From IMG/VR virus record IMGVR_UViG_2724679539_000005, positions 1 through 64,000 of that record: a DNA stretch of 64,000 bases; one strand, 5' to 3'. The notes below the pieces were generated by a model. The model saw only the letters and a program-made list of their open reading frames with translations. It did no database searches and was not told where the DNA came from. Source of the stretch: a virus. Taxonomy: Duplodnaviria; Heunggongvirae; Uroviricota; Caudoviricetes. Below are positions 19,363 through 61,155 of the stretch, one piece after another; within the stretch, counting starts at the first letter, position 1; the number at the start of each line of letters is the position of its first letter. The translations under genes were made by a program, and so were the position numbers.

Positions 19363-19379
19363 CACCATCTAAATCAATA
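19363..19379 (+). repeat. attL core: 17-bp direct repeat CCTATTATCGCACCATC
   Basis: Identical 17-mer at 61139-61155; an AATCAATAA block follows both copies; 2 bp upstream of int stop. Confidence 0.7.
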
Positions 19380-19381
19380 AG

Positions 19382-20542
19382 TTACCTCGCATTTAAGTAA
19401 ACTACGTTCTCCTCTTGTGCCGTATTTGTGCCATTGCGACTTATAATCGCATCGATTTTGCTCGCGTGCTCGGTGAGATGCCCAGCTGAAAGGTGGGCGT
19501 ATCTTTGAACCATTTCGAGAGTTTCCCATCCTCCCATCTCTTTAAGTGCAAGAAGAGAGACACCGGACTGAACCAGCCAGCTTGCCCAGGTATGCCTCAG
19601 GTCATGGAAGCGGAAGTTGCTAATGCCTGCCCGCTTTAACGCTCCCTTCCATGCCTTGTTGCTGTCGGTTCTCATCTTCCTTACCGCTGCTGTTTTTGTT
19701 CCGTCGCTTCGGTAGGCAGGTTTGGTGTGGACAAATACCCATCTCTTATGGAGCCCCTGCTGTTTTCTTAATATCTGGCATGCGGTTTCGTTAAGAGGAA
19801 CTCCGATCGCATTGCCAGCTTTTGTTTCATCAGGGTGCATCCATGCCATTTTCTTATCCAGATCGACCTGTGACCACTCAAGGTCTGTAACGTTGGAACG
19901 ACGAAGGCCTGTCGTGATTGCAAACATGACCACAGGGAAGAAATGAGGAGCAATTTCTGCAAACAGGCGCTTCGATTCCTCCTCTGTAAGCCATCTGATT
20001 CGTCCATTCTTAACGCGTGGTGTTGATATTTTGGGCGCCCTGTCAAGCCATCCCCATTCAACAGCCATATTGAGAATAGCGCGAAGTATTGCCAGATGCC
20101 GCGTCTTCGTTCCTTTGCTTGCCAGCTTTGGTTTATACTCCGGCACTGGCTTGCCAAGCCGCAAACACCTATCCCGGCTCATCTCCCAGTTCAGGCGATG
20201 GCGGCGGTTTTCCATCCCGTCTACCGCCTCCATTATTTTTTCTGTTGTTATGTCAGAGAGAATGGTTTCTCTGAAGTGCAACATCCAGAACGATATAATG
20301 CTCTTGTCATCATCAATGGACTTCTTATCCGATTTCTCACGCAGCCACCGTATGCAGGCTTCCTTGAATAGCTTTTTCGGTGATTCCCCGAGATTTTTTA
20401 CTCTCCACGCTTCTGCTTTCAGACGATCGTGAAGTTCTTGCGCTTGCCTCTTGTCCGATGTTTCAAGAGAGCGTCTAACTCTTGATCCATCTGGCGCGAC
20501 GAAATCGCAGTGCCATGTGCCACCGCGCAGTTTGATTGACAT
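19382..20542 (-). CDS. int: Phage integrase (tyrosine recombinase, lambda family)
   Basis: 386 aa; catalytic HDLRHTWAS and LEMVQRYAHL motifs. Confidence 0.9.
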   Translation of the reverse strand: MSIKLRGGTWHCDFVAPDGSRVRRSLETSDKRQAQELHDRLKAEAWRVKNLGESPKKLFKEACIRWLREKSDKKSIDDDKSIISFWMLHFRETILSDITTEKIMEAVDGMENRRHRLNWEMSRDRCLRLGKPVPEYKPKLASKGTKTRHLAILRAILNMAVEWGWLDRAPKISTPRVKNGRIRWLTEEESKRLFAEIAPHFFPVVMFAITTGLRRSNVTDLEWSQVDLDKKMAWMHPDETKAGNAIGVPLNETACQILRKQQGLHKRWVFVHTKPAYRSDGTKTAAVRKMRTDSNKAWKGALKRAGISNFRFHDLRHTWASWLVQSGVSLLALKEMGGWETLEMVQRYAHLSAGHLTEHASKIDAIISRNGTNTAQEENVVYLNAR

Positions 20543-20838
20543 GCTTTAACCTCCTGCACATCAACCGCATTCACCGCGCCATTGTGTCTCACAGACTTAA
20601 GCGCCGCAATGCAGTCTGACTTGCAAATGCGATATGGGCTTTTAGGTTTATCTGGATTTATCTTTGCGGCTTGAAGTCGTCCACTTCGTATCCACTGCGT
20701 GATAGTGCCTTTGTCTACCTTCAGATACGACGCAGCCTCTTCACGAGTGAAGATTTCTTCTTCCACTTGGAGTCTCCATTTATTGGATTGACATGATTGC
20801 TGTAGGTCTGGATATCTTGAGAAGCTGGCAGGCCTCAT
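20419..20838 (-). CDS. xis: Excisionase-like DNA-binding protein
   Basis: HTH segment FTREEAASYLKVDKGTITQWIRSGRL; overlaps int start by 124 nt, so exact limits uncertain. Confidence 0.5.
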   Translation of the reverse strand: MRPASFSRYPDLQQSCQSNKWRLQVEEEIFTREEAASYLKVDKGTITQWIRSGRLQAAKINPDKPKSPYRICKSDCIAALKSVRHNGAVNAVDVQEVKACQSNCAVAHGTAISSRQMDQELDALLKHRTRGKRKNFTIV

Positions 20839-21113
20839 CGAGTGTGAGGCTGTATGATTCCATGGTTACCTCTGCTTTTTGAACGCATGTCACGTAACTT
20901 CTTAATGTGTTCTGCCGTTTCGATCTCTTCTGCTATCCGATCTGCATCAGCTTTATTCACAGGTTCAAAGTCATGATTAAATCGGAACATGCTGGCGATA
21001 CATGTTCTGCCTTTTCGGATGTAGTGAACTTTGTTGTGGGTAGAACGCAGGATTTTGCAGGGAGTGCCGTGGTGATCGACGTACCAGGTGTTAGGAAAAA
21101 TGATTCTGAACAT
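20835..21113 (-). CDS. Hypothetical protein
   Basis: 92-aa ORF. Confidence 0.4.
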   Translation of the reverse strand: MFRIIFPNTWYVDHHGTPCKILRSTHNKVHYIRKGRTCIASMFRFNHDFEPVNKADADRIAEEIETAEHIKKLRDMRSKSRGNHGIIQPHTR

Positions 21114-21160
21114 TTTTACACCTCAGTTGGACGATGTTGAAATTTGCTGCTTTGAGGCCA

Positions 21161-22478: not shown

Positions 22479-23159
22479 TCATCGCCATTGCTCCCCAAAT
22501 ACAAAACCAATTTCAGCCAGTGCCTCGTCCATTTTTTCGATGAACTCCGGCACCATCTCGTCAAAACTCGCCATGTACTTTTCATCCCGCTCAACCACGA
22601 CATAATGCAGGCCTTCACGCTTCATTCGCGGGTCATAGTTGGCAAAGTACCAGGCATCTTTTCGCGTCACCCACATGCTGTACTGCACCTGGGCCATGTA
22701 AGCCGACTTTATGGCCTCGAAACCACCGAGCCGGAATTTCATGAAATCCCGGGAGGTAAACGGGCATTTCAGTTCAAGGCCGTTGCCATCACTGCATAAA
22801 CCATCTGGAGAGCAGGCGGTACGCATACTTTCGTCGCGATAGATGATCGGGGATTCAGTAACATTCACGCCGGAAGTAAACTCAAACAGGGCCCTGGCGT
22901 CGTTCTCGTACTGTTTTCCCCAGGCCAGCGCCTTAGCATTAACTTCCGGAGCCACACCGGTGCAAACCTCAGCCAGCAGGGTGTGGAAGTAGGACATTTT
23001 CATGTCAGGCCACTTCTTTCCTGAGCGGGGCTTTGCTATCACATTGTGAACTTCTGAAGCGGTGATGACGCCGAGCCGTAATTTGTGCCATGCATCATCC
23101 CCCTGTTCGACAGCTCTCACGTCGATCCCGGTACGCTGCAGTATAATGTCCGGTGTCAT
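22479..23159 (-). CDS. exo: Lambda exonuclease (Red alpha)
   Basis: 226 aa, near-identical to lambda Exo as I recall it. Confidence 0.95.
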
Positions 23160-23941
23160 GCTGCCACCTTCTGCTCAGTGGCTTTCTGTTTCAGGAATCC
23201 AAGAGCTTTCACTGCTTCGGCCTGTGTCAGTTCTGACGATGCGCGAATGTCGCGGCGAAATATCTGGGAACAGAGCGGCAATAAGTCGTCATCCCATGTT
23301 TTATCCAGGGCAATCAGCAGAGTGTTAATCTCCTGCATGGTTTCATCGTTAACCGGAGTGATGTCGCGTTCCGGCTGACGTTCTGCAGTGTATGCGGTAT
23401 TTTCGACAATGCGCTCGGCTTCATCCTTGTCATAGATACCAGCAAATCCGAAGGCCAGACGGGCACACTGAATCATGGCTTTATGCCGTAACATCCGTTT
23501 GGGATGCGACTGCCACGGCCCCGTAATTTCTCTGCCTTCGCGGGTTTTGAATGGTTCGCGGCGGCATTCATCCATCCACTCGGTAACGCAGATCGGATGA
23601 TTGCGGTCCTTGCGGTAAATCCGGCATGTACAGGATTCGTTGTCCTGCTCAAAGTCCATGCCATCAAACTGCTGGTTTTCATTGATGATGCGGGACCAGC
23701 CATCAACGCCCACCACCGGAACGATGCCATTCTGCTTATCAGGAAAGGCGTAAATTTCTTTCGTCCATGGATTAAGGCCGTACTGGTTGGCAACGATCAG
23801 TAATGCGATGAACTGCGCATCGCTGGCATCACCTTTAAATGCCGTCTGGCGAAGAGTGGTGATCAGTTCCTGTGGGTCGACAGAATCCATGCCGACACGT
23901 TCAGCCAGCTTCCCTGCCAGCGTTGCGAGTGCTGTACTCAT
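23156..23941 (-). CDS. bet: Recombination protein Bet (Red beta)
   Basis: 261 aa, near-identical to lambda Bet. Confidence 0.95.
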
Positions 23942-23946
23942 CCGTT

Positions 23947-24243
23947 TTATACCTCTGAATCAATATCAACCTGGTGGTGAGCAATGGTTTCAACCATGTA
24001 CTGGATGTGTTCTGCCATGCGCTCCTGAAACTCAACATCGTCATCAAACGCACGGGTAATGGCTTTTTTGCTGGCCCCGTGGCGTTGCAAATGATCGATG
24101 CATAGCGATTCAAACAGGTGCTGGGGCAGGCCTTTTTCCATGTCGTCTGCCAGTTCTGCCTCTTTCTCTTCACGGGCGATCTGCTGGTAGTGACGCGCCC
24201 AGCTCTGAGCCTCAAGACGATCCTGAATGTAATAAGCGTTCAT
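23947..24243 (-). CDS. gam: Host-nuclease inhibitor Gam
   Basis: 98 aa [21 protein letters not shown], matches lambda GamS. Confidence 0.9.
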
Positions 24244-24318
24244 GGCTGACCTCCTGAAAATGGCTGTGAAAATATCGCCCGCGAAATGCCAGGCTGATTA
24301 GGAAAACAGGAAAGGGGA

Positions 24319-24729
24319 TTAGTGATTCAGGCCGTTACCGCGTCCGTCGAGAAAAACTTCCACGAGCAAATCACGGGTATAAGTGCGCTCGATGCCGCGA
24401 TGCAGATAAAGCCGTCCGCGTAAATTAGCTGATGCAGTCCAGGTACCATCTTTGTGTTTGACCAGCATTCCTGGCATGACCGCACCTCGATTAACGGTCT
24501 GCGTTCCATAATGTTGATGAACCATAAAAACTCCTGCCCGTAAGCTGGGCTGCTGAACATATAGAGACTTCTGCGCGTATTCAGGCGGTGGATGGCCGCC
24601 GGTTGTCATAACTAAGCCGCCTCGTTGAAGCGACTGAGGTATGAGGTGTTGAGTTGATTTCAGCTGGTCACACCGACGTTCACGCGTCCGTTTCACCCCT
24701 CGCACTCCCCGGAGCCTGCCGAAATTCAA
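24319..24729 (-). CDS. Hypothetical protein with Arg-rich N-terminus (possible N-like antiterminator; uncertain)
   Basis: First leftward ORF downstream of putative OL; N-terminus [16 protein letters not shown]. Confidence 0.3.
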
Positions 24730-24799
24730 GCTGCGGATCTAAGCGGTCATCGCAACGGTGAATCAGGCGGTTGCCGTATCGTTGTGTTGTTGCGACATG

Positions 24800-24860
24800 G
24801 TAATAATAGCTATTGCTATTGGTGGTATCAATACTTATTGCTATTGATTGATGTGTTTTG
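24800..24860. promoter_or_regulatory. Putative OL/PL operator region
   Basis: Three TTGCTATTG copies plus ATCAATA, the same motif as the cI-cro intergenic region. Confidence 0.4.
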
Positions 24861-24964
24861 ATATTAACTGTTTGATAGCAAAAAGAATTAATTTTGTGAC
24901 TTGCATCGCATAGCGATAACTGAAGGGAGGTTGTGGTGGTTTTTCGAACGGTTTGTGTGATGAG

Positions 24965-25001
24965 GGGAGGGGACAAAAGAAAACCCGGCACGGTGGCCGG
25001 G
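24965..25001 (-). terminator. Putative terminator of the cI-kinase (PRM) operon
   Basis: CCCGGCACGGTGGCCGGG hairpin followed on the minus strand by a T-rich run. Confidence 0.4.
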
Positions 25002-25168
25002 CTAGATCTTAAAGTATTTATCTTTTAGAGATGTAGATGCAAAATTTTTTGCCTTTGAAAATTTTTTGTCATCAGAAGAGCTTATGAACTCATCTTTTTT
25101 GTAGGGAACCGCTAATGCTGCATCACGTCTGCGAGGCAGCTTACTTACTTCCTCGCACTTTTTCATGA

Positions 25169-26215
25169 TCAGTTATCCTTTAATAACCTATACAGTTTTG
25201 TAGGGGTACATCCTGAGGATATTGTTAAGTTCGTAGCACGCCTTTTCCGCCCACCATCGTATAAACGAAAACCAGTAGTAGACGAATTTTCTGCGTCAAA
25301 AACTATAGACAGTATAACGTCCCCAGACTTTTTTTGCCATTCATATGTGCCGTTAGTTGGTTTTGTCATCTGTAGACGCCAGTCAAGAACGCCATCACTT
25401 ATAGCTGAGAGATCGTTTAGTACGTCTAGTACGGATTGATATCTTTCATTTGGATCTACATGAATGCATTTGTTTACTATTGTTATCAATTTTTTATGTA
25501 TGTGGGAAGGATACTCTTTTAATGGATAGGAGCCATTAATTATCGACTCTCTGAGTTGTTCAATCGTTCTAAATGCAGATCTTTCTCTTTCAAAATTATC
25601 ATATCCAACACACATTCTATATATGGTTAATCCTGCCTGATATATGTCATATGTGAAATTATAATCATTTGTTGATAAAGAAAAATATTCCGGTGGCACA
25701 TGAAAATGATATCCAAACTCAGGCGCAGCTCTCGATTCCTCATTGACTAACTGAGACAATCCAAAGTCAGATAGCATGGCCTCATTTCTGTTTGATATCA
25801 TGATGTTATTAGGTTTTATATCAAAATGCATAAGACCTTTTGAGTGTATATGATAAAGCCCACTTAAAAATTGAATAGAATACCGTATTATCTCCCTGCT
25901 CGTAAGATTAATCTTTTTTATTAATTGGTTTAGCGAACCATTATGATAAAATGGCATGGCTATATAGATATTGCTCTCACATTGAGCAGCATACTGAACT
26001 TGCACAATATTTGGATGTGCATGTTTATAGAGAAGCCTTGCTTCATTAAAGTAGTCGTCGTGGTTAGTGTTTTCTTTTTTTTCTATTTCTTTAATCACCA
26101 AGTCATGAGCTAGGTGTCTGTCATGAGCCAGATATACTTTTGAAAAACAACCCTGTTCTTCTAGATCACGAATCCATTCGAATGCTACATCAGCTCTTTT
26201 GTATGGAGTCAGCAT
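25169..26215 (-). CDS. Eukaryotic-like (Hanks-type) Ser/Thr/Tyr protein kinase
   Basis: Gly-loop GCFSKVY, VIK lysine, catalytic loop HFDIKPNN, SDFGLS, PPE; AT-rich. Confidence 0.8.
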   Translation of the reverse strand: MLTPYKRADVAFEWIRDLEEQGCFSKVYLAHDRHLAHDLVIKEIEKKENTNHDDYFNEARLLYKHAHPNIVQVQYAAQCESNIYIAMPFYHNGSLNQLIKKINLTSREIIRYSIQFLSGLYHIHSKGLMHFDIKPNNIMISNRNEAMLSDFGLSQLVNEESRAAPEFGYHFHVPPEYFSLSTNDYNFTYDIYQAGLTIYRMCVGYDNFERERSAFRTIEQLRESIINGSYPLKEYPSHIHKKLITIVNKCIHVDPNERYQSVLDVLNDLSAISDGVLDWRLQMTKPTNGTYEWQKKSGDVILSIVFDAENSSTTGFRLYDGGRKRRATNLTISSGCTPTKLYRLLKDN

Positions 26216-26670
26216 CCCCTTACCTCCGCAGATAGTGCAGCCAAAACAGCTTCATTTGTTTCAGTTGTAAAACCAGAATTATCGATTCCATTTATATTAC
26301 GGTGTGACTTCAATATTTCTTTATACTCGATCTCTGTTAGGTTCAATGATGACTTCATACCAGATTTTCTAATGGTGTAATATCTTCTTACATCACTGCT
26401 TGAAAATGCTTCTTGAATAACAGCTTCTATATAAAGGCGGTCAATGCTAAGATTATCAGAGTTTGATTCAGTAACGCGTATAGCAGCTAATTCAACATTA
26501 TATAAATTAAGAATGTCGAGGATGTTATTTCGCACATACTTTAATTTTTCTGGTGTGTCTAAGGTCGAAGGTATTTTAATAACATCAACACATTTGAGTG
26601 CAGACTCATCAGTGCAATATACAACAAAAGATGTAACTTTGGGCGCCGCCCTAACACCTAGTATTCTCAT
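26209..26670 (-). CDS. Hypothetical protein (153 aa) coupled to the kinase gene
   Basis: Stop overlaps kinase start by 7 nt; AT-rich. Confidence 0.5.
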   Translation of the reverse strand: MRILGVRAAPKVTSFVVYCTDESALKCVDVIKIPSTLDTPEKLKYVRNNILDILNLYNVELAAIRVTESNSDNLSIDRLYIEAVIQEAFSSSDVRRYYTIRKSGMKSSLNLTEIEYKEILKSHRNINGIDNSGFTTETNEAVLAALSAEVRGC

Positions 26671-26750
26671 TTTTTATATCCCATTTTAGAATCAGGCTGC
26701 GTTTCTGCAGCCTCTCTCATCACCCAAATGTCTAATCAGGCTATTATTGA

Positions 26751-27443
26751 TTATCCATGTTTCCTGTATGTTTGCGGCATGCTCCCAATAACTTTCCCGA
26801 AGATAAACACCCGGTTCATCTCGTCTTTCTCGATTGGGTCCCACGGTGAGTAGCTCTTGTTATCAGAGATAACCAGCAGTTTATCCTTCATCATTTGCAG
26901 GCGCTTAACATGGGCTGTGTCGTCATACAGAAACGCATAGATACCATCACCGTCGAAAGATTTAACAGTGATATCAACGAACAGAAGATCACCTGGTTCG
27001 ATCGTTCCTGACATGCTGTCACCGCGTACGTTAATGATGCGGATATTTTCTGCCTTCCTGCCATCGAACATGTGACGAGCATCGTCAAACGAGTACTCAA
27101 CCGAGCGTAGAACTTCTACAAACTCACGGTTGATGACTCCCGGCCCGGCACTCACTTCTATATCAAGAACGTCAATCTTGAAGTATTTGGGATGGTTGGC
27201 AGCAGGCTTCCCTGATTGTTGACCGTCATTTCTCATCGGGCCTATGCCTGATGAGAGCCACTCTGTTCGAACACCCAATGCATTAGCTATTTCAACAATT
27301 TTTGTTGAGCCGCGTGCGTTGCCGCTTGTCAGTCTCCAGATTGTGGGTTGAGCTACGCCAGACGCCTTTGCAAGAGCGCCTTGAGACATTCCAGATTGTT
27401 CCATCGCTAGGTTTAAGCGATCAGCAAGAGTTTCTTTTTTCAT
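26751..27443 (-). CDS. cI: CI-like prophage repressor (HTH plus S24 peptidase domain)
   Basis: N-terminal HTH MSQGALAKASGVAQPTIWRL, C-terminal LexA-like domain; ATG at 27443 preferred over track TTG at 27479. Confidence 0.85.
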   Translation of the reverse strand: MKKETLADRLNLAMEQSGMSQGALAKASGVAQPTIWRLTSGNARGSTKIVEIANALGVRTEWLSSGIGPMRNDGQQSGKPAANHPKYFKIDVLDIEVSAGPGVINREFVEVLRSVEYSFDDARHMFDGRKAENIRIINVRGDSMSGTIEPGDLLFVDITVKSFDGDGIYAFLYDDTAHVKRLQMMKDKLLVISDNKSYSPWDPIEKDEMNRVFIFGKVIGSMPQTYRKHG

Positions 27444-27547
27444 AAGTTTTAATTTATACGCTTGCGTATTGATGGTCAAAACACGTTTTGCTATTGATTG
27501 GGTTAATACGCATTGCTATTATCCATTCATTGTAATACCAATAGGAA
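27444..27547. promoter_or_regulatory. Putative OR/PRM/PR operator-promoter region
   Basis: Divergent cI/cro intergenic with repeated TTGCTATTGAT / TACGCATTGCTATT motifs. Confidence 0.5.
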
Positions 27548-27781
27548 TTGATAATGACAAATCAAACCATTCAACTCGCAATCAGTATTACAGGTAGTCA
27601 AAAACGACTGGCAGATCTATGCGGTGTAGCCCAGCCCACTGTTTGGCGTTGGCTACACGGTGGCGGAATTGATGCCCGCTATGTAATGAAAATTGTCTCA
27701 GCCACTGGTGGAAAGATTAAACCAGCAGATATTCGTCCCGACCTTGCACCATTGTTTAACGCGAGTAATTCTGCCGCCTAA
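27548..27781 (+). CDS. cro: Cro-like HTH regulator
   Basis: 77 aa HTH LADLCGVAQPTVWRWL, divergent from cI. Confidence 0.7.
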   Translation: MIMTNQTIQLAISITGSQKRLADLCGVAQPTVWRWLHGGGIDARYVMKIVSATGGKIKPADIRPDLAPLFNASNSAA

Positions 27782-27805
27782 ACTGCGGCGTTAACTGATA
27801 AGGCA

Positions 27806-28351
27806 ATGATTATGCAACCACTTACATACCAACAGACTAGCGGATTTAGCCCGACTGCGGTGATAAATCGTTCTCAAATAAAACAGGTGCCAGGCCACGA
27901 AAAAATCCGTGATGCCGTTCGCGCCTGGTCGGCTGCAGATAATCAGGATGTTGTTGCCGCACTCATTGTGAATGAGTATCGGGAGCAGGGCGGCGGCACC
28001 ATCGATTTCCCTGATGATGTCAGCCGTGCACGCCAGAAGCTGTTCCGCTTCCTCGATAACAAATTCGATTCTGAAAAATACCGAAATAACGTGCGTGAAC
28101 TGACCCCGGCAATTCTGGCGGTACTACCGCTGGAATATCGCGGCCACCTGGTTGAGCAGGATAGCTTCATGGCTCGGCTGGCTGAAATGGAAAAGGAACT
28201 CTGTGAGGCAAAGCAGGCGGTCATTCTCAACGCACCACGCCACCAGAAACTGAAGGAGATGAGTGAAGGTATTGTGTCGATGTTTCGTGTGGACCCGGAT
28301 CTGGCTGGTCCATTGATGGCGATGGTCACCACCATGCTGGGGGCAATATGA
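27806..28351 (+). CDS. CII-like regulator (YdaT-type)
   Basis: 181 aa, position and size match the cro-proximal regulator of Rac-type prophages. Confidence 0.5.
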   Translation: MIMQPLTYQQTSGFSPTAVINRSQIKQVPGHEKIRDAVRAWSAADNQDVVAALIVNEYREQGGGTIDFPDDVSRARQKLFRFLDNKFDSEKYRNNVRELTPAILAVLPLEYRGHLVEQDSFMARLAEMEKELCEAKQAVILNAPRHQKLKEMSEGIVSMFRVDPDLAGPLMAMVTTMLGAI

Positions 28352-29367: not shown

Positions 29368-30065
29368 AAAACATCGCCGCACAGATGGTTAACTTTGACC
29401 GTGAGCAGATGCGCCGGATCGCCAACAACATGCCGGAACAGTACGACGAAAAGCCGCAGGTACAGCAGGTAGCGCAGATCATCAACGGTGTGTTCAGCCA
29501 GTTACTGGCAACTTTCCCGGCGAGCCTGGCTAATCGTGACCAGAACGAACTGAACGAAATCCGCCGCCAGTGGGTTCTGGCTTTCCGGGAAAACGGGATC
29601 ACCACGATGGAACAGGTTAACGCAGGAATGCGCGTAGCCCGTCGGCAGAATCGACCATTCCTGCCATCACCCGGGCAGTTTGTTGCCTGGTGCCGGGAAG
29701 AAGCATCCGTTACCGCCGGGCTGCCAAACGCCAGCGAGCTGGTTGATATGGTTTACGAGTATTGCCGGAAACGTGGCCTGTATCCAGATGCAGAGTCTTA
29801 TCCGTGGAAATCAAACGCGCACTACTGGCTGGTTACCAACCTGTATCAGAACATGCGGGCCAATGCGCTGACTGATGCGGAATTACGGCGCAAGGCTGCC
29901 GATGAACTGGCCTGTATGACAGCGCGAATTAACCGTGGTGAGGCGATACCTGAACCAGTAAAACAACTTCCTGTCATGGGCGGGAGACCGCTTAATCGTG
30001 TTCAGGCTCTGGCGAAGATCGCAGAAATCAAAGCGAAGTTTGGGCTGAAAGGAGCAAGTGTATGA
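29364..30065 (+). CDS. P: Replication protein P (helicase loader)
   Basis: 233 aa, near-identical to lambda P. Confidence 0.95.
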   Translation: MKNIAAQMVNFDREQMRRIANNMPEQYDEKPQVQQVAQIINGVFSQLLATFPASLANRDQNELNEIRRQWVLAFRENGITTMEQVNAGMRVARRQNRPFLPSPGQFVAWCREEASVTAGLPNASELVDMVYEYCRKRGLYPDAESYPWKSNAHYWLVTNLYQNMRANALTDAELRRKAADELACMTARINRGEAIPEPVKQLPVMGGRPLNRVQALAKIAEIKAKFGLKGASV

Positions 30066-36214: not shown

Positions 36215-36312
36215 TTAAAGGAAAAGTTGCTGTCTGATTGTCATTAGTCTAATATTTTAAATGTTGGAATCGCAACGTAGTTATTATCATATAACAGCTT
36301 GTTTCCTGATTT

Positions 36313-50384: not shown

Positions 50385-50406
50385 CCTGCTGCGGCAGGTT
50401 TTTTTA
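50384..50406 (+). terminator. Rho-independent terminator
   Basis: CCTGCTGCGGCAGG hairpin followed by T7. Confidence 0.5.
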
Positions 50407-50421
50407 TGGCTGGAGAAAGAC

Positions 50422-51891: not shown

Positions 51892-52394
51892 GCGATAAAA
51901 ATACACTACGTGCCTGGACTTTCTTCCGGCAGGGGATCCGTATTCAGGGGGCGCATGAGTTTACGCCGCCATCGCTGACAATCGTGAAAACTGACCTGCG
52001 AACTGGTGCCCAGGATGCGCCCACGCCCGTGGATGACGGGATGGAAGCACTGACCTGTCAGGTGAAATTTTACGGTCTGGACACGGATATGCTGGCCAGC
52101 TTTGGATTTGTCAGTGGCAGTCGTTCCCGCTTTACGGCCTACCAGGGGTATCTCGGCAACGGTACTGCTCGCGGTACTGTTGAGGAAATTGAAGGGTTTA
52201 TTCAGGCTGTCACGCCAGATGCGCGGGGTAAGGATAATCTTTCTGAAAATGCCATCACGGTCGATATTGCGGTCAGTTATTACCGACAGACGCTGGATGG
52301 TCGTGAACTGTTTGCCATTGATACCGAGCGCTTTTCCCGTCGGGTAAATGGTGTCGATATGTTGTCGGGTCTGGCGGCAAAAGTTCGTCTCTGA
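51888..52394 (+). CDS. Tail tube protein (FII-like)
   Basis: 168 aa coupled to sheath gene. Confidence 0.75.
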   Translation: MSDKNTLRAWTFFRQGIRIQGAHEFTPPSLTIVKTDLRTGAQDAPTPVDDGMEALTCQVKFYGLDTDMLASFGFVSGSRSRFTAYQGYLGNGTARGTVEEIEGFIQAVTPDARGKDNLSENAITVDIAVSYYRQTLDGRELFAIDTERFSRRVNGVDMLSGLAAKVRL

Positions 52395-52418
52395 TTATTC
52401 CCGTTCTTTAACTACCTG

Positions 52419-52439
52419 ACGGCCTGCGGGCCGTTTTTT
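52419..52439 (+). terminator. Rho-independent terminator
   Basis: CGGCCTGCGGGCCG hairpin followed by T6. Confidence 0.5.
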
Positions 52440-52440
52440 A

Positions 52441-52752
52441 ATGGAGGTGATTATGCCTTTTCCCGGTGAAACCCGCGTTATCCGATTGTTTTCCCCTGTC
52501 ACTCTGGAGGGTGGCGTGATCCTTGAGGAAGTGACGATGCGTGAACCGCTGGTGCGCGATCGTATTGCTCATGCCAAAGATCGTGGCAATGAAGAAGAAA
52601 AAGAAGCCCGGATGATTGCGCTGTTGTGCAACCTCAGTGAAAAGGACATCTGGCAACTGACGGCTGCAGACTATGCGCAACTGCTGGATGCCTTCAATGT
52701 TTTTATGCTGCCGCCCGCGAAGCGTCCGAAAGACACCTCCTCCGGGCGATAA
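52441..52752 (+). CDS. Tail assembly chaperone
   Basis: Small ORF between tube and tape measure. Confidence 0.5.
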   Translation: MEVIMPFPGETRVIRLFSPVTLEGGVILEEVTMREPLVRDRIAHAKDRGNEEEKEARMIALLCNLSEKDIWQLTAADYAQLLDAFNVFMLPPAKRPKDTSSGR

Positions 52753-52854
52753 AACTCCTTGGACGGCGACTGCATTTTCCTATGTCGGACTATCTGGATA
52801 TGCCGTTCAGCACTTTCTCTGATTTTCTTACTGATGAACTGGAGACGATGAACC

Positions 52855-54765
52855 GTGGGCGGAATAAGCCAGAATCTTAAAGCCGTTATCACGTTTGGCG
52901 GTAACCTGGACAGTTCATGGAAGCGCTCGGCTGACGGTTTACAAAAGAGCCTGAATGATGTCGGGAAACGTTCAGAACGTCTGACAAAGGAGCAGGCAAA
53001 ACTGGCTGCTGAAATTAAACGCGCGAAACTGGCAGGTGAAAGTCTGGGGAATTTGAAACGCCGTTATAGCGAAGTTTCCAGAGAGATCCGCAAGGCAGAG
53101 GCAGAGCAGCAGAAACTGAATGTCCAGATGCAAAAAGCACAGCGGATTGAGGCATTCAAAGGTGCCGGGAAGGGATTGTTCCGGCGTGGTCTGGGGATTG
53201 CCGGTCAGGTCGGAGGTATGTTCGGTACCGGACTGGCATTTGGTGGCGGTGGTGTGGTGGCCTCAGCGCTCGGCACGCTTATCGCCCCGGCGGCAACGAA
53301 TGCTGAAACTGCCACCCGCGCCAGTGTGGCGAAAAGCTACGGTGTGGATGTCGCCACCTTCAGTGCGTGGGACTCCCTGGCCCGTCAGTACGATATGAAT
53401 GCCGAAAATATTGGTGACCTTTTTGAGGAGTATCTGCACAAAGCGGGTGAGTATAAGCAAAATGGGAAACAGGGCTCTCTGCAGGATGCCTTTGAAACGC
53501 TGGGGTTTAAAGAGGGCGATTTTGCCGGGCTCAGTGATATGGCGCAGTTCGATAAAATTGTTGAGCGGGCGCTCAGTCTCCAGGATGAGGCAAAAGCATC
53601 TTTTGCGCTGGACTCTCTTTTTGGCGGGGAGGCCAGTAAGCTGCTGATGCTGATCAAACAGTCGGGCAGAAGCTACCGGGAGCTGATGGACGAGCAGCGT
53701 CGTTATAACCTGGTGACCCGGGAGGGGGCAGAAGGTGCGATTGCCGGTAATCAGGCTATCAGTAATCTGCGCACGGTGTTCTCTTCGGCGGTGGCGGAGA
53801 TTTCCGGGCAACTGGGTAATGAGCTGGCACCTGATATCCGGCGATTAACGGACGATTTGGCAGACTGGTTTAAAGGGGGCGGCGTCAGGCGTATTGTCAC
53901 TTTCCTGCGTAACGATCTTTATCCCGGGGTGTTGAGCTTTGGTCAGGGCGTGGTTTTTGTTGGCAAAATTGTCTATGCGCTGGCTAAAAAACTGGCCTGG
54001 CTGTTACCGGATGAGCGTGAAGATCAGCGTGATGTGCTGAAGGCGCTCGCCAGAAGTGGTTCCGTTGACCTTGCCAGACTGACCGCGCAGCGAAGTGGAC
54101 AGGGGGAATGGTTTGAACAGCAGTTAACAGCGCATCCGGACTTACCGGAAAAGGTGAAACGGTCCTGGACATCGACACGTGGTTATTTTGGTTTTGATTC
54201 GGATGATGAGGCATTTAACCAGTCTGTTGATCACTATCTGACCCCGGAAAGCCACGAATCCTTATTAAACTGGAATACCGCTTTACAGCGTAACCAGCGG
54301 GAGTCTGCATCGTTTCCCCCGGTAACAACGGAAAATAACACAGTTATTCATACCGCTCCGATGACGACAGAAAACAACACATTTATGCATTACGTTCCGG
54401 CAATGACGGAGAACAATACCGAAGCCTGGAATAAAGATGTGTTACCTCCCGTCTTTCCTGCTGTTCTACCGGAATTCACATTTTCTTCACGACAACAACA
54501 AGCCGCGGATCCGCGTTCTGCCAGAGAGCAGGAGGACAAAACAGGGGGCTACTGGGAAAATCTGCTGCAGAAAATGGACGCACTGGATAAACAGCCGCCG
54601 TCCAGGCAGGTTATCGATAACCGGAAGTTTGATTATCACTTCGAAATTAATGCAGCTCCCGGGCAGGATGAAAAAGCCATTGCCGATGAACTGACCACGG
54701 TCACCCGAAATAATCCGGCTTTTAACGGGGACAACCGTCTGACGGATGGAGGACTGGTCTGGTGA
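52855..54765 (+). CDS. Tail tape measure protein
   Basis: 636 aa, coiled-coil N-terminus, Gly/Ala-rich hydrophobic segment. Confidence 0.75.
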   Translation: MGGISQNLKAVITFGGNLDSSWKRSADGLQKSLNDVGKRSERLTKEQAKLAAEIKRAKLAGESLGNLKRRYSEVSREIRKAEAEQQKLNVQMQKAQRIEAFKGAGKGLFRRGLGIAGQVGGMFGTGLAFGGGGVVASALGTLIAPAATNAETATRASVAKSYGVDVATFSAWDSLARQYDMNAENIGDLFEEYLHKAGEYKQNGKQGSLQDAFETLGFKEGDFAGLSDMAQFDKIVERALSLQDEAKASFALDSLFGGEASKLLMLIKQSGRSYRELMDEQRRYNLVTREGAEGAIAGNQAISNLRTVFSSAVAEISGQLGNELAPDIRRLTDDLADWFKGGGVRRIVTFLRNDLYPGVLSFGQGVVFVGKIVYALAKKLAWLLPDEREDQRDVLKALARSGSVDLARLTAQRSGQGEWFEQQLTAHPDLPEKVKRSWTSTRGYFGFDSDDEAFNQSVDHYLTPESHESLLNWNTALQRNQRESASFPPVTTENNTVIHTAPMTTENNTFMHYVPAMTENNTEAWNKDVLPPVFPAVLPEFTFSSRQQQAADPRSAREQEDKTGGYWENLLQKMDALDKQPPSRQVIDNRKFDYHFEINAAPGQDEKAIADELTTVTRNNPAFNGDNRLTDGGLVW

Positions 54766-55232
54766 GTAATTTCATGTCTTTTATTGATGAATTTGGTCAG
54801 CAACAGGCTGAAAACCTGCGTTCGGCAGGAGCCGCCCGCGTGATGATGATGCTGGGAGATTTTGCTTTTTCGATTGATACGACAGCCTATAACCAGCTGA
54901 CCCGCGAAGCAACCTGGCGCTGGAGCGAACAGGAGCGCATTGGTAAGCAGGATCTTCTCCAGTACACCGGAAAGCCGGGGCGTACCGTCAGACTTGAAGG
55001 CGAATCCCATGCCTTTTTTCGAAAAGGTGTTGGCCCCGTCAATGACCTGTTTGCTCTTGCCGACCAGGCGAAGCCACTGCAGCTGGTCAGTGGAGAAGGG
55101 GATGTTCTGGGATGGTGGGTGGTAACTGACTTTACTGACACCACTAACCGGTTCCTGCCGGGAGGTGGTCACCGTAATAAAAACTGGACAATGACACTGA
55201 AACACTATGCCGACGATATATCAAACCCGTGA
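54762..55232 (+). CDS. Tail protein (P2 gpU-like)
   Basis: 156 aa following tape measure. Confidence 0.5.
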   Translation: MSNFMSFIDEFGQQQAENLRSAGAARVMMMLGDFAFSIDTTAYNQLTREATWRWSEQERIGKQDLLQYTGKPGRTVRLEGESHAFFRKGVGPVNDLFALADQAKPLQLVSGEGDVLGWWVVTDFTDTTNRFLPGGGHRNKNWTMTLKHYADDISNP

Positions 55233-55422
55233 CGGTGATGTGCTGGATGCGATTTGCGCCGCGCACTATGGCAGCGAAAATCTCGCTGACACGATAATCC
55301 AGGTTCTGGAGGCAAATCCCGGGCTGGCTGATCGTGGCGCGGTATATCCCTCCGGTCTGTCTGTTATTCTGCCGGAACGGGTGATCCCGGTTGTGGAGTC
55401 TGCTTTCAGCTTATGGGATTAA
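55207..55422 (+). CDS. Tail protein X (P2 gpX-like)
   Basis: DVLDAICAAHYG..ANPGLA..LWD resembles P2 gpX. Confidence 0.7.
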   Translation: MPTIYQTRDGDVLDAICAAHYGSENLADTIIQVLEANPGLADRGAVYPSGLSVILPERVIPVVESAFSLWD

Positions 55423-55423
55423 T

Positions 55424-56542
55424 ATGGTTTCTCAGACGATGACTCCTGAATATGCGCCAGCATTCCGCATAAAGGCAGAAGGGAAAGATATTACCCGCAT
55501 ACTTGAGCAATGCCTTTCTGAACTGACGCTGACAGATTACGGTGGCGCGACCGCCAGAGCCGATGAACTGAAAATTACCCTGCTTTCTGAAACGCTGACA
55601 CTTCCGCCCAGAGGGGCGCGACTACAGGTTGCGCTGGGATTTAATGAGCAGCTTGTCGATAAAGGCTGGTTTGTTGTCAGCGGAGTTGCCAGCAGTGGGC
55701 CACCGAGGCGCATTGAAATTTATGCCACCGCAGCGCCCATGAATGCACGGAAGCAACCCGGTGACGTCACCAGTCAGAAAACACGAAGCTGGGATAACAT
55801 TCGTCTGGAGGATGTGGTGAAAACCGTGGCCACCGATAATGGCCTGATCCCCAGAGTCGCTGCCGTGCTGAAAGATATTCACATTAACCACATCGACCAG
55901 GTGGCTGAATCTGATGCTAACCTGCTGTCCCGGCTTGCCCGCATCTACAACGCGGTGAGTAAACCTTCCGGTGGTTACTGGCTTTTTCTGCCGCAGGGGG
56001 CGACAGCGACCGTTTCCGGTAAACAGATTGACAGTATCACCATTACGCCTGCAGACGTGACAACGTGGTCATACAGTGAAGGTGAGCGGGGGAGTTCCAC
56101 GGGTAAGGTCACGGAAAGTGGGGGTAAAGCAAAAGAGAAAATCGGGGTTCGCTATTACGATGAAGTGGATGGCAGGACAAAAACCGCAGCGGTCGAACAT
56201 GACGGACCGGCAATGACCAACCCGTATACCCAGTCAGAAAAGGATACGGCAGAGAAGCAGGCGAAAGCACGAAAAACACAGGTAAGACGGAATGAGCAGA
56301 AAATGACGCTCACCGGCCCCTGCCGACCACAGCATATTCCCCTGACGGCAGAAGCAGGGGTGGCAACCTCAGGATTTGGTACCCGGGAAGACAGAGCCTG
56401 GGTGGTTGAGTCGCTGGTCTTTTCACTGACCGCTGCCGGATTCAGTTATACCTGCAATCTGGTGGTGGATATTCACAAACCACAAAAATCCGCAAAAAAA
56501 TCGAAGCAACAGGATAAAACTGGTCCGGCTTACTTCGGTTAA
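55424..56542 (+). CDS. Tail protein D (P2 gpD-like)
   Basis: About 370 aa in gpD position. Confidence 0.65.
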   Translation: MVSQTMTPEYAPAFRIKAEGKDITRILEQCLSELTLTDYGGATARADELKITLLSETLTLPPRGARLQVALGFNEQLVDKGWFVVSGVASSGPPRRIEIYATAAPMNARKQPGDVTSQKTRSWDNIRLEDVVKTVATDNGLIPRVAAVLKDIHINHIDQVAESDANLLSRLARIYNAVSKPSGGYWLFLPQGATATVSGKQIDSITITPADVTTWSYSEGERGSSTGKVTESGGKAKEKIGVRYYDEVDGRTKTAAVEHDGPAMTNPYTQSEKDTAEKQAKARKTQVRRNEQKMTLTGPCRPQHIPLTAEAGVATSGFGTREDRAWVVESLVFSLTAAGFSYTCNLVVDIHKPQKSAKKSKQQDKTGPAYFG

Positions 56543-56582
56543 TCCATCGCGCCATCCGGCGCTTTTGTAACGGAAAATCATC

Positions 56583-56936
56583 ATGAACGGTGTAAACAGC
56601 CGGACAGGCAAACGTCTGTCTGGCGTGGCGCATTTGCGCCAGTCTGTCCGGGACATTCTGACCACGCCCGTCGGGAGTCGTGTGCTGATCCGTGACTATG
56701 GCAGTGAACTGTTTTCGTTGCTGGATAACCCACGGGATGACCTGACGCGCCTGCGGATAATCGCCGCCTCAGCGACTGCACTGGCTCGCTGGGAGCCGCG
56801 TTTAAAGGTGACGCGGGTGATGGTCTCCTTCCCGGCGGGCGAATCCGGTTGTGTTCTGGATATCGAAGGGATCAACAAAGAAGACGGCTTACCCGTCAGA
56901 ACAGGAGAAATAACGCTAAATGCCCAACAGTTATGA
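56583..56936 (+). CDS. Baseplate protein gpW (gp25-like)
   Basis: 117 aa with GPW/gp25-type motifs. Confidence 0.7.
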   Translation: MNGVNSRTGKRLSGVAHLRQSVRDILTTPVGSRVLIRDYGSELFSLLDNPRDDLTRLRIIAASATALARWEPRLKVTRVMVSFPAGESGCVLDIEGINKEDGLPVRTGEITLNAQQL

Positions 56937-57840
56937 TGTGATCAATCTGTCTGAACTCGCTGTTCCTGATGCGCTTGTAGTGCCGGATGCCACAGAGATT
57001 TTCTCCCGATGGCTGGCACGTCTGCAGGAGCTGGATCCGCAGTTTGATGCGCTGGTAGAGTCCGATCCGGCGTTTAAACAGGGAGAGGTGAATGCATATC
57101 AGCTGACGCTGGCCTTTCAGCGTGTCAATGATGCAGTGCGGGCAGTATTTCTTGCCAGCGCCAGAGGCGCAGACCTTGATCAGATTGGCGCTGCCTTCAA
57201 TGTTAAACGCCAGGTTATCAGACCGGGTGATCCGGATGCCGTTCCCCCCGTCGAAGTGGAACTGGAAGATGACGGCGCATTTCGTGAACGTATTCAGTTG
57301 TCCTGGGCACAGTTAAATACGGCGGGTGCCCGCAACGCTTACCGCTTCCATGCGAAATCGGCGGATACCGATGTGCTGGATGCTGAAGCTTATGGCCCCG
57401 AAACACACAGCCGCCCGGGGTGTGTTGATGTGTATGTGCTTTCCCGTACGGGAGACGGAACAGCAGCTGCACCACTGCTGGATAAAGTTAACAGCACACT
57501 GAATGCCGATGAAATCCGTCCATTGACAGACTACGTGACGGTGAAGAGCGCCACTATCAAAAATTATGCCATCACGGCTGAACTGGAGATCCCGGACGGC
57601 CCGGACGCCACGACAGTTCTGAACAATGCCATTGAAGCCTTGCAGTCCTACACCATGCTGTCTCACCGGATTAACACCGTGGTGCCGTTATCTGCCATCT
57701 ATGCCGCTTTACAGCAATCCGGTGTGGTTCGCGTCAGACTGATCTCCCCCGTGGCTGATCTGGAAGCCGAAGCCGGAAAAGCACCGTGGTGTACTGCCAT
57801 CAACGTCACCCGCAGGGAGGTAAGCAGCCATGACGGATAA
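56920..57840 (+). CDS. Baseplate protein J
   Basis: 306 aa in gpJ position. Confidence 0.75.
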   Translation: MPNSYDVINLSELAVPDALVVPDATEIFSRWLARLQELDPQFDALVESDPAFKQGEVNAYQLTLAFQRVNDAVRAVFLASARGADLDQIGAAFNVKRQVIRPGDPDAVPPVEVELEDDGAFRERIQLSWAQLNTAGARNAYRFHAKSADTDVLDAEAYGPETHSRPGCVDVYVLSRTGDGTAAAPLLDKVNSTLNADEIRPLTDYVTVKSATIKNYAITAELEIPDGPDATTVLNNAIEALQSYTMLSHRINTVVPLSAIYAALQQSGVVRVRLISPVADLEAEAGKAPWCTAINVTRREVSSHDG

Positions 57841-58393
57841 ATTTCGCTCCCTGCTGCCGCCGGGCGCATTTCATGAAGAACGGGTGCAGGAGCAGGCGAC
57901 GACAGAACACATCATCGCACTGGATACCAACATGGTGCGTAAGGTGAAAGATGCGGCCAGCTGCCCGGCACATCTTTTACCGTGGCTTGCGTGGGAACAT
58001 GCCGTCGATTTCTGGGATGACAGCTGGACAGAGACACAAAAGCGCCAGGTGATTAAGGACGCCGCTTACGTGCATCAGCACCGGGGAACGGCGGGTGCGG
58101 TCAGGCGTTCTCTGGGGGCGGTAAACCTGCCGACCACTGTCGTGGAGTGGTGGCAGGATTCACCGCAGGCTGCACCCTACACATTCCGGATTGAAGTTCA
58201 CAGCAGTCAGGGCGTCAGCGATGCACTGTATCACCAGATTCGTCAGCTTACTGACCGGGCTAAAAACCTGCGCAGTCATCTGAGCAAAATAGATGTTCTG
58301 GCGAATATCGGGATGGATGGCGCTTTTTATATTTCAGGTGCGACGACAGCACATATCGATGTGGATATTTTTGCCGGGGAGTCTCATGGCTGA
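57830..58393 (+). CDS. Tail protein I (P2 gpI-like)
   Basis: 187 aa coupled between J and fibre gene. Confidence 0.6.
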
Positions 58394-60083
58394 ATATTAT
58401 TCAATTATTACTAACCGGGGAAAAGAACTGGAGGCGGAAGCGCTTGCCAGTGGTAGCCAGATTATTCTGACACAGTTTGTGGTTGGCGACAGTAATGGCA
58501 AACCGCTGAAACCCGATCCGGCACAAACGCAGCTTGTTAATGAAACCTACCGTGGAGATATTGCAGAGCTGGTGGTATCACCGGAACAGCCGACACAGCT
58601 CATGGCCAGAATTGTGCTGCCAACGGGAACGGGGGGGTTTACAGTCCGCGAAGTGGGACTGATGACTGATGGGGGGGAATTGTATGCCGTGGCGAACTGC
58701 CCGGCGATTGACAAACCGGTTGGCGGTGTCAGCGTCAATATGCAGTTCCGGCTTGCTGTATCTGACACCTCAAACATCACGTTAAATGTGGCAACGGGAG
58801 ACGGACTTTTTCTGCGCATTGACCAGAACCTGAAGGAAATCAAAGCGCGCGGAGCTGGCGCGCAAAAAGAATCCCGCGAGTCTCTTGGTGTTCTGGATGC
58901 CACGACTAAGCAAAAAGGTCTGGTGCAACTGAACAGTGCGGTGAACAGCACCAGTGAGACACAGGCAGCGACATCAAAGGCGGTTAAGACAGCATATGAC
59001 CTTGCTGATGGCAAATACACTGCACAGGACGCCACCACGGCACGAAAAGGGATTGTTCAGTTAAGCAGCGCCACTAACAGTGATTCTGAAACGCTTGCCG
59101 CGACTCCGAAAGCGGTGAAAGCTGCCAATGACAATGCAAACGGGCGTGTGCCCTCAGGACGTAAGGTTAATGGCAAACCACTGAACAATGATGTCAATGT
59201 TACATCGCAGGATATTTTTAACGGTCAGAGTATTGAGATTGGTGCAAACCAGAATCTGGATAATTACAAAACGCCGGGGCTGTACCATCAGCCACTGAAT
59301 GCCAATACAAGCGCAGTGCTGAAATACCCTGAGAATCTTTCAGGTACTCTGGTTGTGCTTAAAAATGCCGGAATAACACAAATTTACTATGTGTATAACA
59401 CATCCAGAAGCTATACCCGCAGCCAGTACTCAACGGGTGGCTGGACACCATGGACGCCGCAGGATTCATTTCCGGTAGGTGCGGCGATTCCGTGGCCTTC
59501 TGATTCAGTACCTACAGGCTATGCCATTATGCAGGGGCAGACTTTTGACAAGGCAGCCTATCCCCTGCTTGCAGGAGCTTATCCGTCAGGAGTGATTCCC
59601 GATATGCGGGGCTGGACAATCAAGGGCAAACCCGCCAGTGGCCGCGCTGTATTGTCTCAGGAACAGGACGGTATTAAATCGCATACTCACAGCGCCAGTG
59701 CGTCAAATACGGATTTAGGAACGAAAACGACAAGTTCATTTGATTACGGCACGAAGACAGTCAGCACGTTTAACCATGGTACCAAAACCACCAATACAAC
59801 AGGTAATCATACCCATACAATTTACAGGGGTAATGCCAGAACCAACAGTGAAACCGGTTATACGGGTTTTGATAATCCATCATTTAATGGAACATCAAGT
59901 GCAGCAGGGAACCATGCTCATACTGTTGACATTGGTCAACATAACCACACCGTAGGTATTGGTGCCCATGCACACACTGTGGCATTGGGGGCGCACGGAC
60001 ACACCATCACGGTCAATGCTACGGGGAATGCAGAGAACACCGTAAAAAACGTTGCATATAACTATATTGTGAGGCTGGCATAA
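58386..60083 (+). CDS. Tail fibre protein
   Basis: Conserved N-terminus [12 protein letters not shown]; His-rich C-terminal repeats. Confidence 0.8.
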
Positions 60084-60667
60084 TGACTTTCAGAATGAGT
60101 GCAGAGGCACAAACTATTCGTGTATTTAATTTACTGGATGGAAGCAATGAATTTATTGGCGAAAGCGATGCATATATTCCACCGTATACAGGTCTGCCTG
60201 CAAACAGTACAGATATTGCACCTCCAGATATTCCAGCTGGCTATGCTGCCGTTTTCAATGCAGACGAAATGAAATGGCATTTGACAGAGGACCATCGTGG
60301 GAAAACTGTCTATGAAACAAAAACAGGAGCAGCCATTTATATTTCTGAACTTGGTGCATTACCTCCTGACGTGACAACAATTTCCCCGACTGGCAATTAT
60401 CAGAAATGGAACGGGAATGCGTGGGTCGATGATGTAGATGCGGAGCGTGTGGCACTTATCAACGAAGCCGAATCGCAGAAGAAAGAGCTGCTCAGACATG
60501 CAAGTGAAATCATCGCCACCTTACAGGACGCTGTTGATTTAGATATGGCGACCGATGAGGAAAAATTACGTCTGAATGAATGGAAAAAATATCGAGTTTT
60601 ATTGAATCGTATCCGACCGGAGAATGCTCCGGATATCGAGTGGCCGGTAATCCCTGTCATGGAATAA
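60083..60667 (+). CDS. tfa: Tail fibre assembly protein
   Basis: 194 aa; C-terminal motif [13 protein letters not shown]. Confidence 0.8.
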
Positions 60668-61108
60668 TCGTTTTGTGATATGCCGCAGACACGTAGCATG
60701 CAATAACGTGCTGCGGCTGGCTGGTGAACTTCCGATAGTGCGAGTATTGAATGATTTCCAGCCGTTACCGATTTTACGTGTTAATACTTCCACATCATTT
60801 AAACGGTTTGTAAGTTCCTGGTAGGTAATTCTCCCGTTAACATGCCTATGGCGCCGTTTGGTTTCAGGCTTATCTTTTTTTGCGTAATAAAAGGTGAGAC
60901 AAAAATGAGACACACAAAGCTTTGTACTGGATTGCAAGGCTTTGCGCTCTTCTGTGGATGTGTGGCTACATGTTTGAAGATCGTTGTGCCGTATTTGTGA
61001 CATACACATGACAACATCATGCATCAACTTTCTGTTTGTGCCATCAACTATAGCTTAGTGAATGCGGTTAATGCTTGCTAAAACAGATAGTTATGATTGG
61101 TGCTACAG

Positions 61109-61153
61109 ATTCGTAATGCGAAGGTCGTAGGTTCGACTCCTATTATCGCACCA
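61109..61153 (+). pseudogene. 3-prime half of a tRNA-Thr(CGU)-like gene (thrW-like), no matching 5-prime half
   Basis: ATTCGTAATGCGAAGGTCGTAGGTTCGACTCCTATTATCG..CACCA matches anticodon loop, T-arm and acceptor of tRNA-Thr as I recall it; upstream bases cannot pair as acceptor/D-arm. Confidence 0.6.
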
Positions 61154-61155
61154 TC
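61139..61155 (+). repeat. attR core: 17-bp direct repeat CCTATTATCGCACCATC
   Basis: Identical to 19363-19379. Confidence 0.7.

Follow-up and report, generated by a model that had tools for sequence, protein, structure and literature searches.

Background

Islands that integrate into tRNA genes fall into two crossover classes, one centred on the anticodon and the other at the T/acceptor junction, and in certain islands the displaced tRNA gene (tDNA) fragment shows a short deletion located 3 bp upstream of the discriminator, termed tDNA fragment damage (PMC4383910). Such damage has been reported for tRNA-Thr, only for islands of the phage-inducible chromosomal island (PICI) type and never for prophages, and it is thought to debilitate the gene at island excision (PMC10111431). 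A comparable event is the excision of CP4-57 and CP4So, which deletes one nucleotide from the ssrA acceptor stem (PMC10107115). thrW, the tRNA-Thr(CGU) gene beside proA, is also the target of lambdoid phages, and the 46-bp sequence ATTCGTAATGCGAAGGTCGTAGGTTCGACTCCTATTATCGGCACCA is the attP core of SfI, SfII, SfV, SfX and P22 (PMC3636060). In this study, we analysed a stretch of 64,000 nucleotides from a Caudoviricetes record (IMG/VR IMGVR_UViG_2724679539_000005, positions 1 to 64,000; hereafter the window), in which an island with a P4-family integrase (1-19369), a prophage (19370-61108) and the left end of a third island follow one another at thrW, focusing on their attachment (att) sites, their integrases and the order in which they may have arrived.

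Several described systems resemble parts of this locus. The prophage has int and both att arms 97% identical to those of the thrW lambdoid phages SfX, HK446, HK75, HK542, mEpX2 and mEp213, in which they are contiguous, and shares the 46-bp attP core and the proA-side locus with this group, including P22, SfV, SfII and SfI. It differs from them in its morphogenesis genes, which combine a lambda-type head with a P2-type tail (80% identity to Citrobacter phage Chris1), in having neither gtr nor oac next to attP, in an attL that is split by the island and in an attR that is one G short. The island, like the P4-like cryptic prophages CP4-57 (E. coli ssrA) and CP4So (Shewanella ssrA), has a P4-family integrase, AlpA, a target at the 3' end of a tRNA-like gene and a displaced fragment with a single-nucleotide acceptor-stem deletion, which in those elements is inherited by the host gene on excision (PMC10107115). 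Its target, however, is thrW and not ssrA, its cargo consists of P22-type ejection, PerC and PRiA4_ORF3 genes, and its scar is inferred from the sequence. Integrase, alpA and an alpha-type primase in P4 order are shared with the P4-like satellites (Moura de Sousa and Rocha 2021), but no psu, sid, delta or P2/P4 cos was detected in the island, which measures 19.5 kb compared with about 10 kb for the satellites. Its zones (integration, Bro/AntA/Ash, replication) are closer to those of Gram-negative PICI-type islands than to those of P4 satellites.

As a whole, the locus has the plan of the Islander/TIGER tandem arrays, an intact tDNA followed by islands with fragments, as in CP4-6 between thrW and the ptwF fragment of K-12; thrW and ptwF are both named as matching sites in the GenBank notes on HK446 and mEpX2. 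Unlike those arrays, the present one mixes two crossover sublocations of one tRNA gene, which is why its internal fragments are of unequal length (18 and 45 nt). Helper-embedded PICIs (Tommasini, Mageeney and Williams 2023) are likewise small islands with int and alpA, lying in or against a prophage that is whole only after island excision. Here, in contrast, the island interrupts an attachment site and the regenerated tRNA gene and not a late gene, and no shared cos or helper link was found.

Results and discussion

A tandem array at thrW

The source contig of the window is E. coli GCA_000968905.2, JZWQ02000012.1, and the retrieved loci were identical to the window. A preliminary description of the window had predicted an intact tRNA-Thr to its left, and this gene was seen in the source contig as tRNA-Thr(CGT), located after proA and ending 166 bp before position 1. 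The same arrangement of proA, thrW and int, with thrW again 166 bp upstream, was found in E. coli CE0026f, which is 100% identical over window positions 1-4000. The array reads proA, intact thrW, a 19.5-kb P4-integrase island, an 18-bp thrW fragment, the 41.8-kb prophage, a 45-nt thrW fragment and the third island, and the proposed tandem layout of a prophage and a P4-family integrase island was confirmed. Islander recognises a tandem tRNA array by one intact tDNA with islands behind it, each bringing an integrase and a 3' tDNA fragment in the same orientation. This pattern is seen here, with the tDNA fragments on the + strand throughout. Two such pairs, the island int with the 18-bp fragment and the prophage int with the 45-nt fragment, are in the window; the integrase of the third island lies outside it and is known from relatives.

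The array is a new instance of a known and ordinary arrangement, tandem islands at a tRNA gene, at a locus that has long been known as a hot spot. Only the possible excision hierarchy within it, set out below, might be new. For annotation, three separate elements should be called here and not one 60-kb "prophage".

Attachment sites at the two prophage ends

The 17-mer CCTATTATCGCACCATC occurs in exactly two + strand copies in the window (19353-19369 and 61139-61155), where none is expected by chance, also with 2 mismatches permitted. The preceding T (19352, 61138) is common to both, and the repeat is really 18 bp long (19352-19369 and 61138-61155). The two copies of a 17-bp repeat reported in the preliminary description are thus present, but the left one had been placed at 19363, 10 bp off, and its distance from the int stop codon, given as 2 bp, is 12 bp, since the int reading frame occupies 19382-20542 on the - strand. 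The same description was right that tRNA sequence precedes the right copy only: 61109-61153 matches thrW from the base before the anticodon loop through the CCA end, minus one G (single G at 61148), and unrelated island DNA precedes the left copy. It was also right that the window holds no 5' tRNA half, since ARAGORN found no tRNA gene in the 64 kb.

One G is absent from both repeat copies, which read CGCACCA where intact thrW has CGGCACCA. At the internal site a single G (19362) takes the place of the GG at acceptor positions 70-71 of thrW, that is, the small deletion 3 bp upstream of the discriminator is present in this displaced fragment. The prophage attR (61109-61153) likewise holds 45 of the 46 positions of the core ATTCGTAATGCGAAGGTCGTAGGTTCGACTCCTATTATCGGCACCA, with one G absent.

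That the prophage is bounded by thrW-derived repeats was borne out by free phages. When 60930-61155 is joined to 19370-19560, the product is contiguous, at 97% identity, in HK446, HK75, HK542, mEpX2, mEp213, mEp043, SfX and ECP1, and in these phages the stretch is annotated in GenBank as attP next to int. The arm-type motif TTTGTG[AC]CAT occurs 5 times in the window compared with 0.46 expected, with candidate sites at 19425, 60994 and 61035. A 23-mer quoted as the "P22 attP site" in PMC8022706 was uninformative on the crossover point and was not used as evidence.

The integrase points to the same target. Its exact protein adjoins proA-thrW in 9 of the 10 contexts shown, and its gene is 98.6-99.1% identical at the nucleotide level to thrW-abutting integrases of complete E. 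coli genomes (the 40 that match best, for most of which a tRNA-Thr is annotated under the match). In the canonical lysogen 19451123, which carries an unrelated P22-like podovirus but shares int and the P arm with the present prophage, intact thrW abuts int, and the other end reads P arm, full 46 bp, third island, with both Gs at both ends. A regenerated intact thrW directly abutting int (canonical attL) is absent from the present locus, where 18 bp of thrW abut int and the intact gene lies 19.5 kb off; the attR also differs, with one G here compared with two in the canonical lysogen.

Two integrase classes at one tRNA gene

Four unrelated left arms, belonging to this phage (its P arm), to gtr-carrying prophages, to another island and to ESBLEC_HM50, leave thrW identity at the same nucleotide, exactly 5' of ATTCGTAATG, just before the anticodon loop, and elements with an integrase of the prophage type always have a 46-bp block beginning at this loop. 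In four arms of P4-type elements or of the third island, thrW identity instead ends at the T-loop/T-stem border. The two positions agree with the anticodon and T/acceptor crossover classes known for tRNA-integrating islands (PMC4383910), the A and J site classes of Islander. Most likely, then, the prophage integrase exchanges strands at the anticodon loop, so that its attP carries the last 46 bp of thrW, and the island integrase most likely does so near the T-stem/acceptor junction, with a displaced fragment of about 18 bp bearing a 1-nt deletion. The one-G internal 18-mer would be the expected mark of a P4-family island, because the missing G (acceptor positions 70-71) lies at the known deletion site of P4-family and PICI elements. 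Fragment length and acceptor-stem deletion together reveal which integrase class made each junction; they thereby limit the possible order of events in a way that a search for repeats by itself cannot, and the unequal fragments and the scar make the present array a clear illustration.

Two other genomes bear on the fragments. In CP053045.1 (locus L013, about 11192-12386) the same prophage int is separated from thrW by a different island, whose integrase has 357 aa, and the internal junction keeps the full 46 bp, as would be expected if both elements there use the anticodon loop. In ESBLEC_HM50 (locus L006, 2981-3025, next to dhaR) a one-G 45-nt thrW fragment is joined to the third island, with another left arm and at another chromosomal position, which suggests inversion or transposition of the array.

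Order of events

On balance, we think it probable that the island moved in after the phage, by way of an earlier excision and re-integration, and not before it. At the internal site CACCAT is followed by C, a phage allele that is also found in canonical lysogens (loci L008, L011 and L013) and in CP056936.1, whose early region is similar to that of the prophage, so the internal site is exactly as it would be after island integration into the thrW of a lysogen. The same event can be followed in a near-isogenic pair: 14EC033 and CUWW06 carry the same IS1-truncated, immobile prophage (99.8-99.96% identity), and only CUWW06 has a 10.4-kb island of this family, placed between thrW and int, the junction so created being the one-G 18-mer. 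In these two strains it was the island that moved. The right end of the island is joined via the one-G 18-mer directly to the third island in 9 complete genomes, and at locus L034 the island is found on the right-hand side of a prophage, beside a 46-bp fragment; it can thus sit on either side of such prophages.

The second part of the argument is the one-G attR, a mark that a prophage would not be expected to carry. A phage attP that itself had one G was ruled out for the four free phages checked, all of which have two. The simplest reading is that the one-G attR would be the trace of an earlier excision, in which a P4-family island left this copy of the thrW 3' end. No identical attR was found among 5,426 complete E. 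coli genomes (best match 99.1%), and no full-length one-G thrW beside the third island was seen in complete genomes.

The history that we favour would have four steps. A P4-family island would already have been at thrW, next to the third island, when the phage integrated canonically at the thrW anticodon loop. The island would then have excised, leaving the 1-nt scar in what is now the prophage attR, and would finally have re-integrated into the regenerated thrW, between the tRNA gene and the prophage int. Such a history would use canonical reactions only and would account for every base.

If the array is read in this way, the prophage attL core now lies about 19.5 kb from the P' arm and int, and a normal attL complex of integrase and Xis should not form until the island leaves, because of this distance from the anticodon-loop core; precise excision of the prophage should therefore need the island to leave first. 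If this dependency holds, a neighbouring island would gate prophage induction in such strains, and movement of the island would switch the tRNA gene between intact and damaged. We put forward, as a tentative proposal that is possible and short of probable, that the island acts as a movable lock on prophage excision, that each departure would stamp a 1-nt deletion on a copy of the tRNA gene, and that the one-G attR would record an earlier hop. Were this true, a cis-acting hierarchy of island, prophage and tRNA gene would arise from att-site geometry alone.

Several points weigh against the favoured order. The order of arrival cannot be read from the final structure, and the position at which the prophage integrase exchanges strands is deduced from where the identity blocks begin. 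A model in which the island has a one-G attP and exchanges strands 3' of that G fits 14EC033 and CUWW06 equally well, and under it excision would leave no scar. The two polymorphic positions, namely the number of Gs and the base (T or C) behind CACCAT, were also tried by themselves as a guide to the order and given up, as both orders need an extra assumption and C is an ordinary phage allele.

The missing G in attR could also be an independent 1-bp deletion or an assembly error in a homopolymer, unrelated to the island, which would then have integrated only once, into the thrW of the lysogen. No selection acts on the remnant, this attR has no exact counterpart among the complete genomes searched, and an independent-read Logan contig stops before attR and gives no cross-check. 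We nevertheless hold this to be unlikely, since the deletion falls exactly at the site where P4-family and PICI islands delete, 3 bp upstream of the discriminator, the one-G 45-nt fragment with the third island recurs in ESBLEC_HM50 behind another left arm, and fragment damage is reported not to occur with prophages (PMC10111431).

Still less likely, in our view, is assembly of the array by homologous recombination, through transduction or conjugation, between strains with different thrW arrays, so that its junctions descend from different ancestors. Across E. coli, the int-att cassette, the island and the third island are indeed found combined and ordered in many ways, copies of the island in unrelated strains with other neighbours match it at 99-100% identity, and IS elements rearrange the locus in several genomes. 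Every junction, however, has kept the precise form of a known att type, so that site-specific events made it at some point; the one-G attR is left unexplained by recombination alone, and no donor and recipient pair was identified.

The preliminary description had proposed that the prophage took as its target the att remnant at the distal end of the P4-like element. In the present terms, the island would have entered thrW first, beside the third island, and the 18-bp remnant would then have received the phage. Tandem integration at partial tRNA copies does occur, the target exists in nature in the 9 genomes with the direct junction of island, 18-mer and third island, and compared with that state the window looks like a clean insertion between two identical 18-bp copies; but the structure alone cannot support this order, because either order of arrival ends in the same structure, and we regard it as highly doubtful given that the remnant has the form and 1-nt deletion of P4-family integrases and lacks the anticodon-loop part that the 46-bp blocks of this integrase type always include and with which they begin, that a single exchange inside the 18/19 bp with the two-G attP of all four free phages checked would give one two-G junction, yet both are one-G, and that in 14EC033 and CUWW06 the island entered beside a resident, IS1-truncated prophage that cannot move.

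Relation between island and prophage

P2-type tail genes had been noted in the prophage, and Pfam matches to sheath, tube and baseplate families confirm them. The accompanying suggestion of a satellite beside a phage with P2-type tail genes lacks support as a satellite-helper pair, as the island lacks psu, sid and delta, no P2 cos or shared packaging site was found and the prophage head is lambda-type. The island holds three of the seven P4 core components (int, alpA and alpha, from the full set of int, psu, delta, sid, alpA, epsilon and alpha). No island open reading frame scanned matched the Pfam families Psu or Ogr_Delta, and sid, for which the libraries used have no dedicated model, was not detected. 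The models used would have caught psu and delta, because the same families were detected in true P4 satellites that occupy the same thrW slot elsewhere (loci L037 and L042). The P2/P4 cos 19-mer had no match in the window at up to 3 mismatches, and no packaging site common to island and prophage was found, their only similarity being a 49-bp C4-RNA segment and the att repeat. A satellite-helper link was rejected on the absence of a P2 cos and of a shared packaging site and on the difference between the C4-like RNAs in their variable loops; the adjacency of island and prophage is explained by the shared integration hot spot.

Both elements carry a pair of isrK small RNA and C4-type antisense RNA, scoring above the Rfam gathering scores (island, 4461-4538 and 4601-4688; prophage, 32570-32642 and 32667-32752), and each pair sits upstream of or within an Ash/Ant-type gene. 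The C4 stems are conserved and the variable loops differ, so the immunity specificities of island and prophage probably differ.

Gene content of the three elements

The features of the window are listed in Table 1.

Table 1. Features of the 64,000-nucleotide window in order of position
Feature	Position	Strand	Basis or remark
P4-family tyrosine integrase	1-1215	+	Pfam Arm-DNA-bind_3, Phage_int_M, Phage_integrase; window position 1 is the start codon
int-alpA RNA motif	1276-1343	+	Rfam RF02996, 46.7 bits, gathering score 35.8
AlpA-family regulator or excisionase	2437-2634	+	Pfam Phage_AlpA, E = 8.9e-20
AntA protein	3078-3911		Bro-type zone of the island
Ash-family protein	4080-5147		Bro-type zone of the island
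P4 alpha-type primase-helicase	6420-8771	+	Pfam Zn_Ribbon_Prim, Toprim_3, DUF5906; PHROG DNA primase E = 1.3e-91
Cargo, two P22-type DNA ejection genes (gp20-like, gp16-like)	10674-14131	+	Pfam Inj_translocase E = 2.5e-73; PHROG 917 and 770; P22_gp16 match in relatives
Internal att site, 18-bp thrW 3' fragment	19352-19369	+	Acceptor stem one nt short, single G at 19362; marks the right end of the P4-integrase island and directly adjoins the prophage P' arm
P' arm next to int	19370-19500		Same sequence as behind the intact thrW of canonical lysogens, C allele at 19369/19370 included; joined to the P arm in free phages
Candidate arm-type site TTTGTGCCAT	19425-19434		Motif, in P' arm
Integrase, SfX/HK446/P22 thrW-targeting type	19382-20542	-	Pfam Phage_integrase
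Xis-like HTH_17 protein	20419-20838	-	Pfam HTH_17; same place as in canonical lysogens
Lambdoid early region: exonuclease (YqaJ), RecT, CI-like repressor, YdaT, replication O and P	22479-30065		Pfam; 95-96% nucleotide identity to lambdoid phages
Q antiterminator, morons, lysozyme, Rz lysis genes	35822-40485	+	Pfam Phage_antitermQ, Phage_lysozyme, Phage_lysis
Lambda-type packaging and head: small terminase, gpA-type large terminase, lambda-family portal, ClpP protease-capsid fusion	41391-47797	+	Pfam; 80% nucleotide identity to Citrobacter phage Chris1
P2-type contractile tail: sheath, tube, tape measure, gpD-like, baseplate J and I, fibre, fibre assembly	50347-60667	+	Pfam Phage_sheath_1, Phage_tube, Baseplate_J, Tail_P2_I, Caudo_TAP
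P arm	60895-61108		Shared with an unrelated P22-like prophage having the same int, and with free phages
Candidate arm-type sites	60994-61003 and 61035-61044		Motif, in P arm
Prophage attR core, 45-nt thrW 3' fragment	61109-61153	+	One G short of the 46-bp P22/SfX/SfV attP core, with a single G at 61148
Right 18-bp repeat copy, inside attR	61138-61155	+	Sequence repeat
Left end of third thrW island	61156-64000		Same DNA directly after intact thrW in most E. coli genomes

The gene order of the island (int, alpA, a Bro-type zone with AntA and Ash, a replication zone and cargo) is that of PICI-type islands, and its further products include DUF4222, PerC and a PRiA4_ORF3 protein. A PADLOC scan for defence genes among its open reading frames of unknown function found nothing. 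P22-type ejection genes are an odd cargo for a P4-integrase island; relatives at loci L030, L033 and L034 (at about 19380-20880) add gp7 and DUF2824. This cargo hints at a P22-like podovirus, rather than P2, as any helper. In many E. coli the island is followed by an 80-150-bp remnant of the 3' end of a diverged integrase and then by yagP or yagU (CE0026f, locus L001, 25527-25610; KP63, locus L045, 3231-3374), and the island thus appears often to stand beside the remnants of long-dead prophages.

The prophage is apparently complete, and no gene in it appears disrupted. Its gpD-like tail gene scored below the threshold of Pfam itself (Phage_GPD, 28.0 bits with a cut-off of 30.1). An early-region gene (25169-26215, - strand) matches the kinase-type defence models mad6 (8e-49) and PD-T4-6 (1.5e-36) in PADLOC and is a candidate prophage-borne anti-phage kinase. 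Two moron blocks have a low GC content: one (30720-32138, - strand) consists of a 472-aa open reading frame of 38% GC with a weak match to HEC-07, and the other, downstream of Q (36369-39126), contains lipocalin, YbgA and AraC-type regulator genes.

The third island is itself a mobile element, about 12 kb long in relatives, where genes for a Phage_cap_E capsid protein and a Dit-like protein are present and a DUF6538 integrase gene lies at the far end; the island is perhaps a satellite that encodes a capsid. It also encodes a protein of about 610 aa (loci L035-L044, L030 and L033), and its own thrW fragment is about 21 bp long.

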